This document shows, piece after piece, positions 7,935 through 44,124 of a stretch of DNA of 64,000 nucleotides. The DNA comes from an uncultured Bacilli bacterium (GTDB lineage Bacteria > Bacillota_I > Bacilli_A > RF39 > UBA660): assembly GCA_944350495.1 (NCBI GenBank), contig CALVOZ010000002.1, positions 9,421-73,420 of the forward strand, read 5' to 3'. The stretch's first letter is position 1. Every line of letters begins with the position of its first letter. A model generated the notes under the pieces. That model ran no database searches, was not told the DNA's origin, and saw only the letters and a list, made by a program, of their open reading frames with translations. The position numbers were made by a program, and so were the translations under genes.

Positions 7935-7986
7935 AAAAACCGTTGAATATCAACGGTTAATAATCTTAATGGTGGAGAATAAGGGA
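7935..7986. repeat. attL: 52-bp direct repeat identical to 44013..44064
   Basis: Exact 52-nt identity, read by eye; contains a 20-bp palindrome AACCGTTGATATCAACGGTT and a copy of the 3' 17 nt of tRNA-Ala. Confidence 0.8.
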
Positions 7987-8092: not shown

Positions 8093-8114
8093 AGTACGTA
8101 ATTAGTACGTAAAA
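8093..8114. repeat. putative integrase arm-type site, copy 1 (AGTACGTAA x2)
   Basis: 22-nt sequence AGTACGTAATTAGTACGTAAAA repeated exactly at 43976..43997; an internal tandem of a 9-mer. Confidence 0.5.
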
Positions 8115-8116
8115 TT

Positions 8117-8596
8117 ATGAATTGTAAATATTTTAAAACTAGAAAAAAAGACAACAAAAAAGAACGACGTATCTATAATTATTGTACAATAAATCGAAAA
8201 GAAATAACCTATGATAATTGTAAAAAATGCAATAAATGTGAAATAAAAATAAAAACGCCTATGAAAAAGCGTTCTAGAAAGCTAAATATGAAAGAAAACA
8301 ACAGATATAGCATAATTTATCAAGATTTAACTAAATGTGCTGAGTGCGGTTCTAAAATAGGAATAGAAAAGAATGAGGTATTTGAAGGTGCATATAGACA
8401 AACATCAATTAAATTTGGAATGGTAGTTCCATTTTGTAAAAAACATCATAGACATTTTCATAATGATATAATTTTTAACTTAAAATATAAAGTTATTTTT
8501 CAAAAACAATTTATGAAAAATCATTCACTTGAAGATTTTATTGGAATTTTCAAACAAGATTATATTTATTTATTAAATAAGAGAAAAAGAGGTTAA
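8117..8596 (+). CDS. Cys-rich zinc-finger / HNH-like protein (moron)
   Basis: CKKCNKC and CAECGS followed by PFCKKHH, a CxxC...CxxH arrangement; only plus-strand gene at the prophage left end. Confidence 0.4.
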   Translation: MNCKYFKTRKKDNKKERRIYNYCTINRKEITYDNCKKCNKCEIKIKTPMKKRSRKLNMKENNRYSIIYQDLTKCAECGSKIGIEKNEVFEGAYRQTSIKFGMVVPFCKKHHRHFHNDIIFNLKYKVIFQKQFMKNHSLEDFIGIFKQDYIYLLNKRKRG

Positions 8597-8610: not shown

Positions 8611-8760
8611 TTATTCTAAAGTGATCCAATGAAAATCACTTTTTGGAACGCCAACTAGCATTCGGTCAAAAAATAATTTTAACTCTTCATAAAATAGAAG
8701 AAAGATCATTATGTCCAAATCATCTGATACATTATAAAATACTGATGTTTTTATTGGCAT
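8611..8760 (-). CDS. small hypothetical protein (about 49 aa)
   Basis: Strong RBS GGAGGTGG 4 nt upstream of the ATG; below ORF-track cutoff. Confidence 0.25.
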   Translation of the reverse strand: MPIKTSVFYNVSDDLDIMIFLLFYEELKLFFDRMLVGVPKSDFHWITLE

Positions 8761-8854
8761 CTTACCACCTCCTACTTTATTATTACTTTTTAATTATTAA
8801 ATTCCTTTTTTTGAAAAAAATTCTCAGCATTATACTGAGAATTTTTTTAGTAAA

Positions 8855-9256
8855 TTATTTATCATTTTTTAAACTAGTAAAGTCAATAACAGGTAATACT
8901 ACACTTTTTTCAACGTCAAAAGATGTTATGTTCGAAATAAGAGCTCTTATATATGGATAAATGATAGCTGGTGCAGATACATTTAAAAAATAATTTTTTT
9001 CTTCTATGTTTAATTCTTCAGAAATTTTAAAGTAACCATTAATTTCTGAATATATTTCGGTGTTTTCTGTATAAGTTTTTAGTTTCATCGTAATACGATA
9101 CCTATCTTTATACTTTTTTTCTGAATTTCTATAAGCGTCAATGTTTAAATCTATTGTTTGTTTTTTTTCTTTAGGAATATCTAATACTCGTTCTATAGAC
9201 AACTTCTGTATATCATATCCTTCAAAAACTACCAATTCTTGTTTCATAAAATTCAC
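8855..9256 (-). CDS. SecB-like chaperone fold protein (candidate TAC chaperone)
   Basis: C-terminal block NVSAPAIIYPYIRALISNITSFDVEKSVVLPVIDF, which resembles from memory the SecB segment around PNILFPYARE and the following NLAPVNF motif; similar length to SecB. Confidence 0.55.
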   Translation of the reverse strand: MNFMKQELVVFEGYDIQKLSIERVLDIPKEKKQTIDLNIDAYRNSEKKYKDRYRITMKLKTYTENTEIYSEINGYFKISEELNIEEKNYFLNVSAPAIIYPYIRALISNITSFDVEKSVVLPVIDFTSLKNDK

Positions 9257-9541
9257 CTATCCAAATCTTTTATCTAAATTCATACCCCTAACATATTCAA
9301 AGTATGGAATTTTATCATTCTTTATTTCAGCTGTGGTACTAAAAACAGATTTAATATTATCGTTTGACTCATCTTTAACAGAATTGTAACTAAACTTATT
9401 ATATTTATTTTCCATAAATTTTTTATGTAATTTCTGAATTTTTTTATTTTTTTCTAAATTTTCCATCATTTTGTTTACTTTATCTAGTTCTTCTCTATGT
9501 TTTTCAAACCATTCATCATCTGTCATATGTATTTTTGTCAT
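9257..9541 (-). CDS. small coiled-coil protein, candidate antitoxin with aromatic C-terminal tail
   Basis: 94 aa, charged and helical, C-terminus KIPYFEYVRGMNLDKRFG; sits between the putative toxin and the SecB-like gene. Confidence 0.35.
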   Translation of the reverse strand: MTKIHMTDDEWFEKHREELDKVNKMMENLEKNKKIQKLHKKFMENKYNKFSYNSVKDESNDNIKSVFSTTAEIKNDKIPYFEYVRGMNLDKRFG

Positions 9542-9569
9542 CTAAACCACCTCCATAATTTAATATTCT

Positions 9570-10202
9570 TTATATATTATGTTTTATTAACCAATCTTCC
9601 ATACTTAAATTAATTATATCCACTTTTTTTATACAATATTGAGCAATTACTTTTTTATCTCTTCCTAAAATAAGACTTTTATCTTTAACGTTTTCATGAT
9701 AAAAATAGCCTAATACTATATCAAATTCTTTATCTTTTTGATTTGCTAAATACTTTAAAAAGTTATTTATTGTGACTCCAGTTAACTTTCCTAATTCATT
9801 AAGTTCATGAGTTGGTGCCTTTGCTTGTTCCTGAATAATTTGTCTATAGTCTAAAATTTTATAATAAAATTTTGGATATGCTCTTTTTAAAAAAGCAATA
9901 TATTGCTGATTCCAGTACAAATTGTCTAAATCCATAATTCTATCTTTATCAATATTTAAATTTACTATTATGCCAACTGGCTTGCAAAAATAATTTTTAC
10001 CCTTAACTAAATTTTTACCAAGTTTAATAGCATACGGGTCATTTATATTCCAAAAATATACTCCATCACCAAGCCATTCAATTTTATTATTTTTTTCATC
10101 ATGTATACTTGGTTTAAACCCATTACTTTCTACAATTTTTTTTAAACATTTATTAGATGTAATATGAATTAATGTTAATAATTGTTTAGTAATTTCTTTC
10201 AT
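9570..10202 (-). CDS. uncharacterised 210-aa protein, candidate toxin (weak DarT/DUF4433-like resemblance)
   Basis: First gene of a 3-gene operon; N-terminal LIHITSNKCL and later KDKEFDIVLGYF are reminiscent of recalled DarT motifs; unverified. Confidence 0.3.
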   Translation of the reverse strand: MKEITKQLLTLIHITSNKCLKKIVESNGFKPSIHDEKNNKIEWLGDGVYFWNINDPYAIKLGKNLVKGKNYFCKPVGIIVNLNIDKDRIMDLDNLYWNQQYIAFLKRAYPKFYYKILDYRQIIQEQAKAPTHELNELGKLTGVTINNFLKYLANQKDKEFDIVLGYFYHENVKDKSLILGRDKKVIAQYCIKKVDIINLSMEDWLIKHNI

Positions 10203-10372
10203 AAAGACTCCATAAATCTCAAGTAAAAAATAGATAAGAAAAACATATTTCTCTTCACATTCTTACATTATTATATATATTCATTGTACAATAATTTTTA
10301 ATGTTTTTCAAGTTACAAACTTGCAACATTATCAAATGAATGTTTAATATAGTATCACAAACAATGTTAAAA

Positions 10373-10424
10373 ATCAATAAAAAAAAGGTATCAGCACTGA
10401 CACTGATACCTTTTTTATTTTTTT
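10373..10424. terminator. bidirectional terminator
   Basis: GGTATCAG-cactgaca-CTGATACC stem flanked by A-run and T-run. Confidence 0.6.
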
Positions 10425-11245
10425 AACTTTCCATTTTTTAATAAATTTAACATTTTAATATTTTGCTCTGCTGTACCTCTATAATCATCAATATTATTCT
10501 TTTCTGCTATCTTTTGTCGATTGCTAAAAGAACTATCAACTTTTATACTTTTTAACCCATCAACAATAGAATTTCCTTTGTATGAGCATTTTGAATAATA
10601 AGATTGAACAATTTCTTTTATTTCAGATTCTTCTGTCCCGATTACTCCTTCAACTTTAGGCAAATATTTGAATGTGATACCATTCCGATTCTTAATTGCT
10701 GTAAAATCTTTATCCACAAAGAAAGCACTTTCAGGCTTGATTGGTGAGTTTATAACCCATCCACCTTTTGAATTTTCTTTCCAACCATTCCCACTAAATT
10801 TTTTATTAGATACTTGTATCTCAACATGATTACCGGTTGCTTTCCCATCTTTACCTTCACGAAACATTTTTTCGCCTTGTTTAAAAGTTTTTCCAACTTT
10901 TAATTTTTCCAAGTCATCATCATTAGGATGTATAAAAAGTATAGTAGCATAACTTTCAGAACCGTTTGCTAGTTTTACTTTTTCTAAAGACTCTATCCAA
11001 ATAGTATTAGTGCCATTATTATCTACACCATATATTCTTTTTATTTTACAATCACAAGGTGCATATACATATTCTCTACTAAAAGTACTACCACACTCAT
11101 CAATAGGATAACCTTTTGGCGTTCCTGTATAAAAAGGCTTATGAGAAAAAGAATCCTTATAATTTTGACTAATATTCATAGTCTTCATAGGATATTTTAA
11201 ATACTGCATACTATTCATCTCCTTTACTTGTATCTTTTTTTGCAA
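10415..11245 (-). CDS. putative endolysin (peptidase-like N-terminal region plus C-terminal wall-binding-like repeat)
   Basis: Directly downstream of and overlapping the holin; GNHVEI segment resembles an M23-type metal site; catalytic class unresolved. Confidence 0.45.
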   Translation of the reverse strand: MQKKIQVKEMNSMQYLKYPMKTMNISQNYKDSFSHKPFYTGTPKGYPIDECGSTFSREYVYAPCDCKIKRIYGVDNNGTNTIWIESLEKVKLANGSESYATILFIHPNDDDLEKLKVGKTFKQGEKMFREGKDGKATGNHVEIQVSNKKFSGNGWKENSKGGWVINSPIKPESAFFVDKDFTAIKNRNGITFKYLPKVEGVIGTEESEIKEIVQSYYSKCSYKGNSIVDGLKSIKVDSSFSNRQKIAEKNNIDDYRGTAEQNIKMLNLLKNGKLKK

Positions 11246-11396
11246 AATAAAACGTGAAAACCATTACTATAATAGTCATCACGTCATTTGGATCAAATTT
11301 ATTAGCTAATAAGCCATAAACCAATAAACCGGTCAGTATTAATGTTACAATACTCTTTAAATCAATTAGTTTCGCTACTTTTTCTATTATTTTCAT
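11211..11396 (-). CDS. holin
   Basis: 61 aa, two TM helices, charged C-terminus; immediately precedes the lysin. Confidence 0.6.
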   Translation of the reverse strand: MKIIEKVAKLIDLKSIVTLILTGLLVYGLLANKFDPNDVMTIIVMVFTFYFAKKDTSKGDE

Positions 11397-36851: not shown

Positions 36852-37096
36852 TTACATCTACCATCCTTTATCTCTTCAATTATTTCTAATTGGTAAACGG
36901 AATTTAAAGTTTTAATAGTTAATAAATTGTCTTGACTTATTTCAACAACAGGTGACGTTCTAATAAAATGTCCTTGTTTTTCTAAAATAATTGATTTGTT
37001 AGGCAACATCCTAAAAGTTCGAACTTCACCTATATGCTTTTTTGCACGTCCATTAGTCGTATCTAAGATTTTTACTTTTAAAATTGATGTTATCAT
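36848..37096 (-). CDS. hypothetical phage protein
   Basis: ORF only. Confidence 0.3.
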   Translation of the reverse strand: MITSILKVKILDTTNGRAKKHIGEVRTFRMLPNKSIILEKQGHFIRTSPVVEISQDNLLTIKTLNSVYQLEIIEEIKDGRCK

Positions 37097-39012
37097 TGAT
37101 TTACCACCTCTAATTTTTTGTTTGCTTGATATTTAGCCCTACAACCAATTATTTGTGTTTCTAACTCAGGTAGTCTAGTTAATTCCCCTAATCCATCAAT
37201 TAAGATCGGTAACCTTTTGTTCTTCATACGTTGAATATTATCAATTAAATCAAGTGCTACGAGTATTTTATGGCCTGCATTTAACGCATTATACTCAATG
37301 CCATCAACTGCTATCTTGAACGTTTCAACTAACTTTCCGTCTTTAGTCTCTTCTTGAGTGATAAAATCAGCTAACTTAAAGTTATGCTTTACTCTTTCAC
37401 GCAACAATTCTGTTTTAGTACTATTAAATAAAATTAATTGTTGCTCTCTTTCATTAAGTCTCTCTTTTTCACTTAGTTTGTCAGCATATTTTGCTTCCAA
37501 TTCTTTTAATTGTTCTTTGAAAATCTTTAATGTAGCTGAAATGGCTAGTTTCTCTGTAATTGTTTCTAACTCATTTTGTAATGAACTAGTATCTCCAACA
37601 TTTATAACTTTATGATTTTTAATTGAATCTTTTAGTAAGTTGATTTGCTTTTGGATATTCAAAGCCTCAATCTCTAAATTAGCTATTTTTTCCTTATTTC
37701 TTGTAATATTATTTTTCATTTGAATTTGAACTGAAGATTCTTGGGTAGAATCTATTTCCTCAGTTTTAATTTCATCGATTTCTTTTTTAACTTGACTTAT
37801 TTTTTCTTTATACGAGTTAATTACTACATCAATTTCACTCATTCTAGTTAACTTTTCTTTAGCTTTTGCAACATACAAATTAGCTCTTGCTTTGGATTCT
37901 TCTTTTAAATTATTCAATACTTCTTTTATTTTTTCTCCTGGTAGTGGTTGACCGCAAGCTGTACATGTACTATTTTCAACTTTTATTTCACGTTTTACTT
38001 CTTCATCATACCTGCTTCTTAATTCTTCCCTATCAGCTATTAAACTTGATTTTTCAAGTTCTAAACGTTCAATATCTTGATTAATACTTTCAATTTGATT
38101 AGTTTTTTCTTTAATTTTATTTGTTTTTATAAGTTCTACATCAATATTTGAACTGTTATATGTTTTTTGATATTCAACGTTGTCTTTTAATAAATTATCT
38201 CTTGTATTGATATTAGCTTTTAAATTTCCTTCTAAAATAGTTAATTTTGAAATTTCAGCATCTTGTGCAGCTTTTTTTTCTTTTAGAATATTAAAAGATT
38301 CAATTGTTGCTTTTATTTCTTGTTTTCTTTCTTCCAATTGTTGTTGCTCATTATCATCAACAACTAATTGTTGAATATCAGTATGTTTTTGGTCAATATT
38401 ACCTTGTAGAACTTTTATTTCGCTTGCAAGTTCTGATTTGCTAGTTTTAATATCTTCAGCTGTCTTTTCTACTCCGACCGATTCAATTTTATCTCTTATT
38501 AAATTAAAATCTCCTCTAACAAATACCTCTTCATTTTTTATTTCACCAATCAATCCCATAATTAAACTTCGTAGTTCTTTCCAATGCAAGTTAGGAATGT
38601 AGTCAATATTTGATAATGCTTTAAATTCCGCGTCTGTAATAAAAAACTTGTCTCTTAAATAATTATTAAATTCCGTAACACCAAATTTGACATCATCTAC
38701 TTTAATCGTAGTTAAACTATTGTTCCAAATTCTTTCAATTTTAGTATCATTGATAATTAACAATACACTAGTTGCTAAATCTTCTTTTTCCTCACCGTCT
38801 ATTATAGGTTTTATTTTAAATTGCTTTTCGTCAGCAAAATTTTTTCCAAATAAACACCATGTAATAGCATCTAATACAGTTGTCTTACCGATTCCATTTT
38901 CACCTTCCAAAATATTTTTGTTTTCCATAAAATTTAATTTTAATTCTGAACATCCTTTAAAGTTCTTAATTTGAATATTATTAATTACTAATTTCATTCT
39001 TCTCTCCTTCAT
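37093..39012 (-). CDS. SbcC/Rad50-like ATPase with central zinc hook
   Basis: Walker A GENGIGKTT; long coiled-coil; CTAC (CxxC) hook at mid-length; C-terminal LPILIDGLGEL. Confidence 0.65.
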   Translation of the reverse strand: MKERRMKLVINNIQIKNFKGCSELKLNFMENKNILEGENGIGKTTVLDAITWCLFGKNFADEKQFKIKPIIDGEEKEDLATSVLLIINDTKIERIWNNSLTTIKVDDVKFGVTEFNNYLRDKFFITDAEFKALSNIDYIPNLHWKELRSLIMGLIGEIKNEEVFVRGDFNLIRDKIESVGVEKTAEDIKTSKSELASEIKVLQGNIDQKHTDIQQLVVDDNEQQQLEERKQEIKATIESFNILKEKKAAQDAEISKLTILEGNLKANINTRDNLLKDNVEYQKTYNSSNIDVELIKTNKIKEKTNQIESINQDIERLELEKSSLIADREELRSRYDEEVKREIKVENSTCTACGQPLPGEKIKEVLNNLKEESKARANLYVAKAKEKLTRMSEIDVVINSYKEKISQVKKEIDEIKTEEIDSTQESSVQIQMKNNITRNKEKIANLEIEALNIQKQINLLKDSIKNHKVINVGDTSSLQNELETITEKLAISATLKIFKEQLKELEAKYADKLSEKERLNEREQQLILFNSTKTELLRERVKHNFKLADFITQEETKDGKLVETFKIAVDGIEYNALNAGHKILVALDLIDNIQRMKNKRLPILIDGLGELTRLPELETQIIGCRAKYQANKKLEVVNQ

Positions 39013-42706: not shown

Positions 42707-42862
42707 AAAAAGTTAGCGCTGTAACGCTAACTCAATATGAAAAACCACCAAACCACCACGTTTGAACAAAAAAGAATACAATGAAACTAATTTGTATTGG
42801 CTTTTCGTGTACTATTATATCACGAAAACCTATACAAAATCAAGGAAGGAATAGGTGATATT

Positions 42863-43963
42863 ATGGCTGTATATCAAGAAAAAGATAAAAGTAAATGGAC
42901 TAAAGACGGTAGATCATGGTATTATGTTTGCTATTATAAAGATATCTATGGTGAAAATAAAAGAAAAAAATCAAAATCATTCTTACTAAAAAAGGAGGCA
43001 TTACAAGCAGAAAGAGAATTTTTAAATTCCATAAAAGATGTTCCTTTAAAAAGTAATATGACTATTGGAAATTTAAAAGATGATTATTTAAAATATAAAA
43101 AAGAAAATGTTCGAATAAGTTCCTACGAATCCACAAAAGTAGCGCTTAAACATATTGATATATTAGAAAAAATATATATTGACGAATTGAATATTAATCA
43201 CATTCAAAATTGGAAAAAATATATTAATGAAAAAAATCTTGCTACCGGATACAAAAACACAATTTATAAAAATTTACGAGCAATGCTAAATTATGGAAAC
43301 AAAATGTATGACCTTAACATAAATATATTAAACAAAATGACAAATTTCACTAATCCAAATGAAGTAAAAAAAGAAATGCTATTTTACACCAAAGAAGAAT
43401 TTGATAATTTTATTTCTTATGAATCTGACTTAAAATGGATATGTTTCTTTTCTGCTCTATTCTACTGTGGCCTTCGCCAAGGTGAAGCATTAGCACTAAA
43501 TTGGAATGATATAAATTTTGAAAATAATACAATTAGAATTAATAAAAGCTTGGCTAATCGTGTAAAAGGTTCAAAATTTCTCATATTACCGCCGAAAACA
43601 CGTGGAAGCAATAGAACTATACCGATTCCACTATCTCTAGCTAAAAATCTTAAAACAAGATATAATGAACAAAAAACATATACAAATTTTTCTAACGATT
43701 GGTTCATTTTTGGAGATATATTTCCATTAGCAACCACAACGATTCAAAAAAGAAGAGATAAACTAGTCGCTTTATCTGGAGTAAAAAGAATTAGAATACA
43801 TGATTTTAGACATAGTTGTGCATCTCTTTTAATTAGCAAAGGTGCAAATATAACTTTAATAGCTAAATATCTAGGACATGATGATGTTTCAACAACCTTG
43901 AACACATACTCACACTTTTACAAGAATGATTTAAGCAACTTAATTGAAAGTGTAGATTTATAA
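42863..43963 (+). CDS. int: tyrosine integrase
   Basis: RBS AAGGAAGG upstream of ATG 42863; HDFRHSCAS (HxxR) and LNTYSH catalytic Tyr; adjacent to attR and tRNA. Confidence 0.85.
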   Translation: MAVYQEKDKSKWTKDGRSWYYVCYYKDIYGENKRKKSKSFLLKKEALQAEREFLNSIKDVPLKSNMTIGNLKDDYLKYKKENVRISSYESTKVALKHIDILEKIYIDELNINHIQNWKKYINEKNLATGYKNTIYKNLRAMLNYGNKMYDLNINILNKMTNFTNPNEVKKEMLFYTKEEFDNFISYESDLKWICFFSALFYCGLRQGEALALNWNDINFENNTIRINKSLANRVKGSKFLILPPKTRGSNRTIPIPLSLAKNLKTRYNEQKTYTNFSNDWFIFGDIFPLATTTIQKRRDKLVALSGVKRIRIHDFRHSCASLLISKGANITLIAKYLGHDDVSTTLNTYSHFYKNDLSNLIESVDL

Positions 43964-43975
43964 AAGGAGGGAAAA

Positions 43976-43997
43976 AGTACGTAATTAGTACGTAAAA
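43976..43997. repeat. putative integrase arm-type site, copy 2
   Basis: Identical to 8093..8114. Confidence 0.5.
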
Positions 43998-44012: not shown

Positions 44013-44064
44013 AAAAACCGTTGAATATCAACGGTTAATAATCTTAATGGTGGAGAATAAGGGA
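44013..44064. repeat. attR core (52 bp), overlapping the tRNA-Ala 3' end and its terminator
   Basis: Identical to 7935..7986. Confidence 0.8.
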
Positions 44065-44124
44065 TTCGAACCCTTGACCCCTTGCGTGCAAGGCAAGTGC
44101 TCTAGCCAGCTGAGCTAATTCCCC
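44048..44124 (-). tRNA. tRNA-Ala (anticodon UGC)
   Basis: Manual fold of the 77-nt reverse complement: G3:U70 in the acceptor stem, anticodon loop CTTGCAC, T-arm GGTTCGAATCC, encoded CCA. Confidence 0.85.

Follow-up and report, generated by a model that had tools for sequence, protein, structure and literature searches.

The operon at positions 8855..10202 of the window (the whole stretch of 64,000 nucleotides that was analyzed, from contig CALVOZ010000002.1 of an uncultured Bacilli bacterium) is probably a prophage-borne, divergent module of the CmdTAC type, in which an ADP-ribosyltransferase (ART) toxin is gated by a chaperone, and which serves as a moron with its own promoter in the lysogen. 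The open reading frame (ORF) map of the window confirms a minus-strand trio of genes for proteins of 210, 94 and 133 amino acids (aa), 28 nucleotides apart or abutting, as described in the original prediction, which was made from the sequence alone. The proposal in that prediction of a toxin-antitoxin-chaperone (TAC) operon, with the genes in this order, also stands. The CmdTAC-type reading is based on the fold, the motifs, the identity of the chaperone, the antitoxin architecture and the gene linkage observed here, and homology with the Escherichia coli system suggests an RNA substrate, a structural-protein trigger and a role in abortive-infection defense. The original prediction considered an ART toxin under a SecB-dependent antitoxin to be an unusual new combination. 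It is not new, because this is exactly the combination published for CmdTAC, and so the locus adds a divergent member to that system and opens no new mechanism.

CmdTAC is the system earlier named PD-T4-9, which comes from a P2-like prophage of E. coli ECOR22 and whose TAC nature has been demonstrated (PMC9519451). In its toxin, CmdT, an HY-[E,D,Q] triad is present, of which the Y41A substitution abolishes defense, and CmdT ADP-ribosylates the adenine N6 in GA of single-stranded RNA, which blocks translation (PMC11618068). The T4 capsid protein dislodges CmdA, the antitoxin, from CmdC, a SecB-like chaperone, and ClpP then degrades CmdA (PMC11618068). CmdTAC was also the subject of a parallel study (Mets 2024; 10.1101/2024.02.24.581848), and both characterized E. 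coli systems (ECOR22 and O112ab:H26) are prophage-borne (10.1101/2024.02.24.581848). CmdTAC-type systems were previously reported in Gram-positive species (Vassallo 2022/2024; Mets 2024).

The 210-aa toxin belongs to no Pfam or NCBIfam family, and a tblastn search of 50,697 phage genomes gave no match to it. A profile search of 1.84 billion representatives found just 55 relatives at E <= 0.001, and residue conservation was scored on an alignment of 46 of these. H13, G47 and Y49 are invariant, and T15, W43, L44, G45, F50, F167, Q188 and C190 are nearly so; Q188, which is part of a Q-x-C motif (Q188-x-C190), is present in 45 of the 46. H13, Y49 and Q188 are all located on predicted beta-strands and form a putative active site, corresponding to an H-Y-[E/D/Q] ART triad. 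Members of the family have weak Pfam matches to PARP and Tox-ART-HYD1, and weak PDB sequence matches place H13 and Y49 opposite the His and Tyr of the PARP2 H-Y-E motif. The toxin is an ART-fold protein. This fold was part of the original prediction; the link to DarT/DUF4433 that was proposed with it failed: no DUF4433 match at E <= 0.1 is among the 25 Pfam families that members of the toxin family match most. Similarly, the LIHIT segment singled out there is a catalytic-type motif that holds the invariant H13, whereas E159, the Glu in KDKEFDIVLGYF put forward there as catalytic, is shared by just 6 of the 46 relatives, and the conserved third position is instead Q188. DarT itself was rejected as an assignment, since neither a DUF4433 domain nor an adjacent DarG macrodomain antitoxin was found. 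Membership in the RES-Xre, ParST and MbcTA group was rejected as well, as the locus lacks the pairing of a RES-domain toxin with an upstream Xre/DUF2384-type antitoxin.

Judged from its sequence, the toxin is a remote member of the CmdT family, with homology mainly in the N-terminal half, because BLASTP, hhalign, shared motifs and the correspondence of Y49 with Tyr41 all connect the two. The earlier statement that it matches no TAC toxin is thus superseded (PMC11618068, PMC9519451). For these comparisons, E. coli cmdTAC was located in a complete E. coli genome via a published primer, and was found in the variable region of a P2-like prophage; as a positive control, its proteins were compared with the PADLOC models of PD-T4-9, and CmdT matches model A at 4e-97, CmdA model B at 3e-38 and CmdC model C at 7e-61. 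Pairwise BLASTP aligns the N-terminal 50 residues of the window toxin with E. coli CmdT (5e-5), and hhalign aligns the family profile with CmdT over 79 columns (89% probability, E 2e-6). When the locus set is searched with a hidden Markov model (HMM) of the toxin family, E. coli CmdT is recovered at 4e-7, and PD-T4-9_A is matched by 34 of the 46 relatives, at best with 5e-14. In the family alignment, WLTQGYYFW of E. coli CmdT stands opposite WLGDGVYFW of the window toxin, and QQMC opposite AQYC. Y49 aligns to the second Tyr of GYYFW, which is Tyr41 in the numbering of the paper that uses its own cmdT start codon (primer pBAD-cmdT-F).

The last protein of the operon is SecB-like, as originally predicted. 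It matches Pfam SecB (PF02556) with 36.1 bits against a cut-off of 26 (E 7e-9), the PADLOC model PD-T4-9_C (7.8e-15) and phrog_21664 (1.5e-14). The profile of the chaperone and its relatives aligns with E. coli CmdC (hhalign, 93% probability), and has a weak match to the PDB structures of Haemophilus influenzae SecB (1fx3/1ozb, E 0.004). A housekeeping SecB was considered and rejected: the best score is 36.8 bits against an NCBIfam equivalog cut-off of 143, and the gene is inside a prophage. E. coli CmdC is likewise far under the NCBIfam cut-offs for housekeeping SecB. The published rule for calling CmdTAC asks for toxin and chaperone HMM matches within two genes (PMC11618068), and the window has PD-T4-9_A on the first gene (E 0.0018) and PD-T4-9_C on the third (E 7.8e-15). 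PADLOC holds two sub-models of PD-T4-9 each for A (PDLC04068/04069) and C (PDLC04071/04072). E. coli CmdTAC fits 04069/04071, and 04068/04072 are the models that suit the window proteins and the bulk of the distant family. On PDLC04072, the window chaperone (7.8e-15) does at least as well as E. coli CmdC (7.5e-13).

The middle, 94-aa protein is the candidate antitoxin. It has no Pfam or PADLOC family, no helix-turn-helix (HTH) or Xre domain was matched in Pfam, and its own family is tiny, with six clusters among 5.8 billion proteins. An AlphaFold2 (AF2) model has helices at residues 8-14 and 16-51, followed by residues 52-94 without regular structure (predicted local distance difference test score of about 50). 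Alignments reveal that aromatic residues in this tail are partly conserved (Y54, F67, PYFEY at 81-85, that is, Y82-F83-x-Y85, and F93). The disordered tail is a putative chaperone-addiction element, and the model and alignments are consistent with the earlier suggestion that it might have this function.

The three genes recur together. In every contig that was read and that carries a toxin 17-67% identical to that of the window, a small gene (~95-126 aa) and then a SecB-like gene are found directly downstream. Because this layout recurs on independent contigs (metagenome, metagenome-assembled genome (MAG) and viral) with toxins of such different identity, the genes are not chance ORFs. Among 103 fetched loci that match the toxin HMM, 24 have the TAC layout; eight of these 24 are IMG/VR viral contigs, and one is E. 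coli cmdTAC. The SecB HMM used for this count had E. coli CmdC and the chaperone of a Latilactobacillus phage among its seeds. Of the relatives that carry a name, the nearest belong to uncultured Bacilli, a Mycoplasma sp. MAG and the Bacilli genus Candidatus Aphodocola.

A SecB-like gene is missing from about three quarters of the CmdT-like toxin loci that were fetched (L013-L078 and L086-L099 in our numbering), whose sources include Bacteroidota, Pseudomonadota and Acidobacteriota. Many such loci contain instead an ORF of ~50-80 aa that ends 0-4 nucleotides before the toxin start or overlaps it (for example, L046 5517-5675, L031 5711-5887, L088 4710-4880 and L018 5719-5898), with a conserved C-terminal motif that is roughly SSKE-A--FL--AGI----G-L---Y(R/K). 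This arrangement looks like a two-gene toxin-antitoxin (TA) system in which the same ART toxin is paired with another antitoxin, encoded upstream. In locus L007 (3060-5228), a TAC cassette is followed by a gene of the MqsA/HTH-SocA_Panacea type (the PanA-type antitoxin domain) and by a gene for a DUF1016/YhcG-type nuclease; this group is a small defense or TA island.

Several results weigh against the assignment to CmdTAC. The PD-T4-9_A match of the window toxin is weak (16 bits, confined to residues 39-93), and automatic callers could have thresholds that exclude it. In direct comparison, the toxin resembles E. coli CmdT in its N-terminal half only, and Foldseek found nothing in the PDB below E 0.01 for this protein. 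The antitoxin has no similarity to E. coli CmdA (hhalign, 0.05%; no PD-T4-9_B match), a protein that is described as highly variable and is not part of the calling rule (PMC11618068). Moreover, the window antitoxin ends in ...DKRFG and its relatives in RFG, GFC or RLS, with no Ala-Ala degron, whereas the C terminus of E. coli CmdA is LDLAA. In E. coli, the Ala-Ala of CmdA, a ClpX degron, is required for its turnover and for ClpXP-dependent toxicity (10.1101/2024.02.24.581848), and so the step of release or removal may differ in the window system. Perhaps, although we consider it doubtful, the toxin and chaperone of CmdTAC were kept and the antitoxin was replaced by the unrelated six-cluster family that lacks a ClpX-type degron. 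If so, the antitoxin in this clade would be released by another route (a different protease, or aggregation), the sensed protein would be a structural one of Gram-positive siphophages, and the ART substrate might differ as well. The system would in that case be a variant of CmdTAC in its mechanism, as opposed to a simple orthologue.

A mechanism can be proposed of which the first three steps draw on sequence and structure, and the last three on the E. coli homologue. The 210-aa protein would act as an H-Y-Q ADP-ribosyltransferase toxin, which the N-terminal helices of the 94-aa protein would bind and neutralize. The disordered aromatic tail would make this antitoxin unstable unless the SecB-like chaperone, probably as a tetramer, holds the tail. 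By analogy with E. coli, an abundant structural protein of another, infecting phage would compete for the chaperone, and the freed antitoxin would be degraded or would aggregate. Once released, the toxin would ADP-ribosylate nucleic acid; as with CmdT, its target would most likely be single-stranded mRNA. The resulting stop of translation would abort the infection and protect the population of lysogens, and hence the prophage.

The likeliest alternative, which we nevertheless regard as improbable, concerns only the substrate step and is compatible with the TAC reading: the architecture would be the same, but the substrate of the ART would differ from that of CmdT. Candidate substrates are single-stranded DNA (as for DarT), protein (ParT acts on Prs, and TreTu on EF-Tu), structured RNA (RhsP2) and NAD+ (the RES toxins MbcT and NatT). 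However, the Q-x-C and WLxxGxYFW motifs are specifically common to the toxin family and CmdT, and the PADLOC CmdT model is the sole defense model that the family consistently matches. Also, among its 25 most-matched Pfam families, there is no RES, DUF4433 or ParT-type family at E <= 0.1.

The prophage, of ~36 kb, is integrated at tRNA-Ala, and the cassette occupies its slot between the lysis genes and the attachment (att) site, because the att repeats, integrase and phage genes flank or enclose it (Table 1). The copy of the att repeat at 44013..44064 overlaps the 3' end of the tRNA-Ala gene (44048..44124), and the other copy is ~870 bp from the cassette. Genes for an SPP1-type portal, terminase and tail proteins and for a DUF859 (Siphovirus-family) protein are situated between the repeats. 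The position beside the lysis genes had been noted in the original prediction, as had flanking terminators and a promoter region, and the endolysin-like and holin-like genes on one side and the 52-bp repeat on the other, as well as two hairpins and a promoter-like site, agree with this. The hairpin directly past the endolysin stop shields the cassette from the late operon of the phage. The hairpin beyond the chaperone gene was missed by a consensus terminator scan and has just 2 G-C pairs; in folding calculations it has -16.1 kcal/mol and z = -7.3 against shuffles. The promoter-like site is a match to consensus only, of a kind that is no rarer in shuffled sequence. The toxin-antitoxin spacer is 28 nucleotides, and that between the antitoxin and chaperone genes is 0 nucleotides if GTG 9256 is the start and 9 if ATG 9247 is. 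ATG 9247 is the start in the gene calls of public assemblies and is preceded by an AGGTGA Shine-Dalgarno sequence. The G+C content of the window is 27%.

Table 1. Coordinates in the window of the TAC operon, its candidate signals and landmarks of the prophage.
Feature	Position	Strand	Description
Toxin gene	9570..10202	-	210 aa, ATG start; predicted CmdT-like ADP-ribosyltransferase
Antitoxin candidate gene	9257..9541	-	94 aa, ATG start; between toxin and chaperone genes
SecB-like TAC chaperone gene (CmdC-like)	8855..9247 or 8855..9256	-	130 aa from ATG 9247; 133 aa from GTG 9256
Bidirectional terminator hairpin	10381..10416	.	16-pair stem, T-runs on both strands; directly past endolysin stop
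Promoter-like site TTGAAA-17-TACAAT	10283..10311	-	~80 nucleotides upstream of toxin start; 10/12 consensus matches
Intrinsic terminator downstream of chaperone gene	8814..8841	-	Stem TTCTCAG/CTGAGAA plus A/U pairs, then T-run
Endolysin-like gene	10415..11245		
Holin-like gene	11211..11396		
att repeat, cassette side	7935..7986	.	52-bp exact direct repeat of 44013..44064
Tyrosine integrase	42797..43963		

The location of the operon raises the question of whether it is an addiction or stabilization module of the prophage, acting by post-segregational killing or in control of its own lytic cycle, and not in anti-phage defense. TA and TAC modules were first characterized outside phage defense (references in PMC11618068), the att-adjacent position would fit a selfish, mobile cassette, and on induction the module could be set off by capsid or tail proteins of the prophage itself. 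Yet CmdTAC, MqsRAC and HigBAC, which are all three of the TACs tested against phages, do defend (PMC9519451, 10.1101/2024.02.24.581848). Moreover, the lysis-to-att slot is a typical moron or defense slot, and in Latilactobacillus phage TMW 1.1386 P1 the same slot carries an analogous three-gene set; we therefore give the addiction reading little credence. That the genes are ordinary accessory or structural genes of the phage with a fortuitous SecB-like domain and no toxin system is very improbable, for while the toxin lacks a Pfam family, the ART fold, invariant catalytic-type residues, SecB-like partner, conserved linkage and PD-T4-9 homology all argue against it.

Other elements of the prophage were also observed. 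An exact pair of 22-bp repeats, AGTACGTAATTAGTACGTAAAA, lies just within the two prophage ends at 8093-8114 and 43976-43997. The repeat is built as an internal duplication of AGTACGTAA, and the pair may be arm-type sites for the integrase or binding sites for an excisionase. Between the att repeat and the TAC operon, a Cys-rich, 159-aa gene at 8117-8596 (plus strand) is oriented convergently to the operon and has a match to phrog_7566 (2e-14) and weak matches to an HNH-endonuclease PHROG and DUF968. Because this gene is also found 3' of the TAC cassette in loci L001 and L005, it accompanies either the cassette or this prophage end. A 49-aa ORF (8611-8760, minus strand) just past the TAC terminator has a very strong Shine-Dalgarno sequence, AGGAGGTGG, and no family match; it is called as a gene in the near-identical contigs L005 and L081 and is absent from the 67%-identical L001. 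In the early region, a gene at 37093-39012 (minus strand) encodes a 639-aa AAA_23/SMC_N-type ATPase, which may serve in recombination or replication, or may be the product of a further accessory or defense gene.

If the CmdTAC-type reading is correct, the range of mRNA-ADP-ribosylating, chaperone-gated abortive infection includes prophages of uncultured, low-GC gut Bacillota, in which a very divergent clade represents it. In this clade, standard defense HMMs barely detect the toxin, and the antitoxin is unrecognizable. The alignment and the motifs H13, WLGxGxYFW and Q-x-C are usable for better detection models. The locus also places TAC cargo in the lysis-to-att slot of Gram-positive temperate phages, and the missing Ala-Ala degron provides a test case for a different turnover of antitoxins outside E. 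coli.

The known system that is most similar to the operon is E. coli CmdTAC. Both have the order toxin-antitoxin-chaperone, with proteins of 192, 77 and 129 aa in E. coli and 210, 94 and 130 aa in the window. In both, the ART toxin has the H, Y and Q-x-C motifs, with Y49 of the window protein equivalent to the essential Tyr41, and the SecB-like chaperones match the same PADLOC model. The predicted architecture of the antitoxin, N-terminal helices plus a disordered tail, is that described for CmdA (PMC11618068). Both systems occupy a variable region of a prophage. In contrast, the window toxin is marginal on the CmdT HMM (E 0.002), with similarity limited to core motifs, and for the window antitoxin no homology to CmdA is detectable and the C-terminal Ala-Ala degron is missing. 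The host is also different, being a Bacillota-like gut bacterium of 27% GC with a siphovirus-type prophage (SPP1-like portal, DUF859) and not a P2-like one. The trigger of the E. coli system, T4 Gp23, cannot be the same protein for the window system.

Classical TAC systems (Mycobacterium tuberculosis HigBA1-Rv1957, MqsRAC and HicAB-SecB, and E. coli HigBAC) also have the SecB-like chaperone gene last, and their antitoxins have a C-terminal disordered, aromatic-containing chaperone-addiction region of the kind that the model suggests for the window antitoxin. However, the toxins of these systems are HigB, MqsR or HicA RNases, whereas that of the window is an ART, and the window antitoxin has no HTH or Xre domain that Pfam matches. 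DarTG, whose toxin DarT is a DUF4433 ADP-ribosyltransferase of single-stranded DNA, resembles the window system in that its toxin has an ART fold (H-Y-E clade) and in that it can function against phages, as the window system would by homology with E. coli CmdTAC.

Finally, Latilactobacillus phage TMW 1.1386 P1, a cultured, induced temperate phage, has three such genes (OP455936.1, 31165..32607; L080 1849-3291) in the slot from the amidase endolysin to the integrase and att site. Their products are 199, 118 and 137 aa, and the last is SecB-like (PD-T4-9_C 2.5e-13). The first gene has an H...GxGxY motif and aligns with the window toxin family at 85% in hhalign. This toxin is more distant still, with no tblastn or PADLOC match and with Q-x-C unaligned. 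The trio, annotated just as hypothetical proteins, probably constitutes a TAC that has escaped annotation and whose ART toxin has diverged even further.
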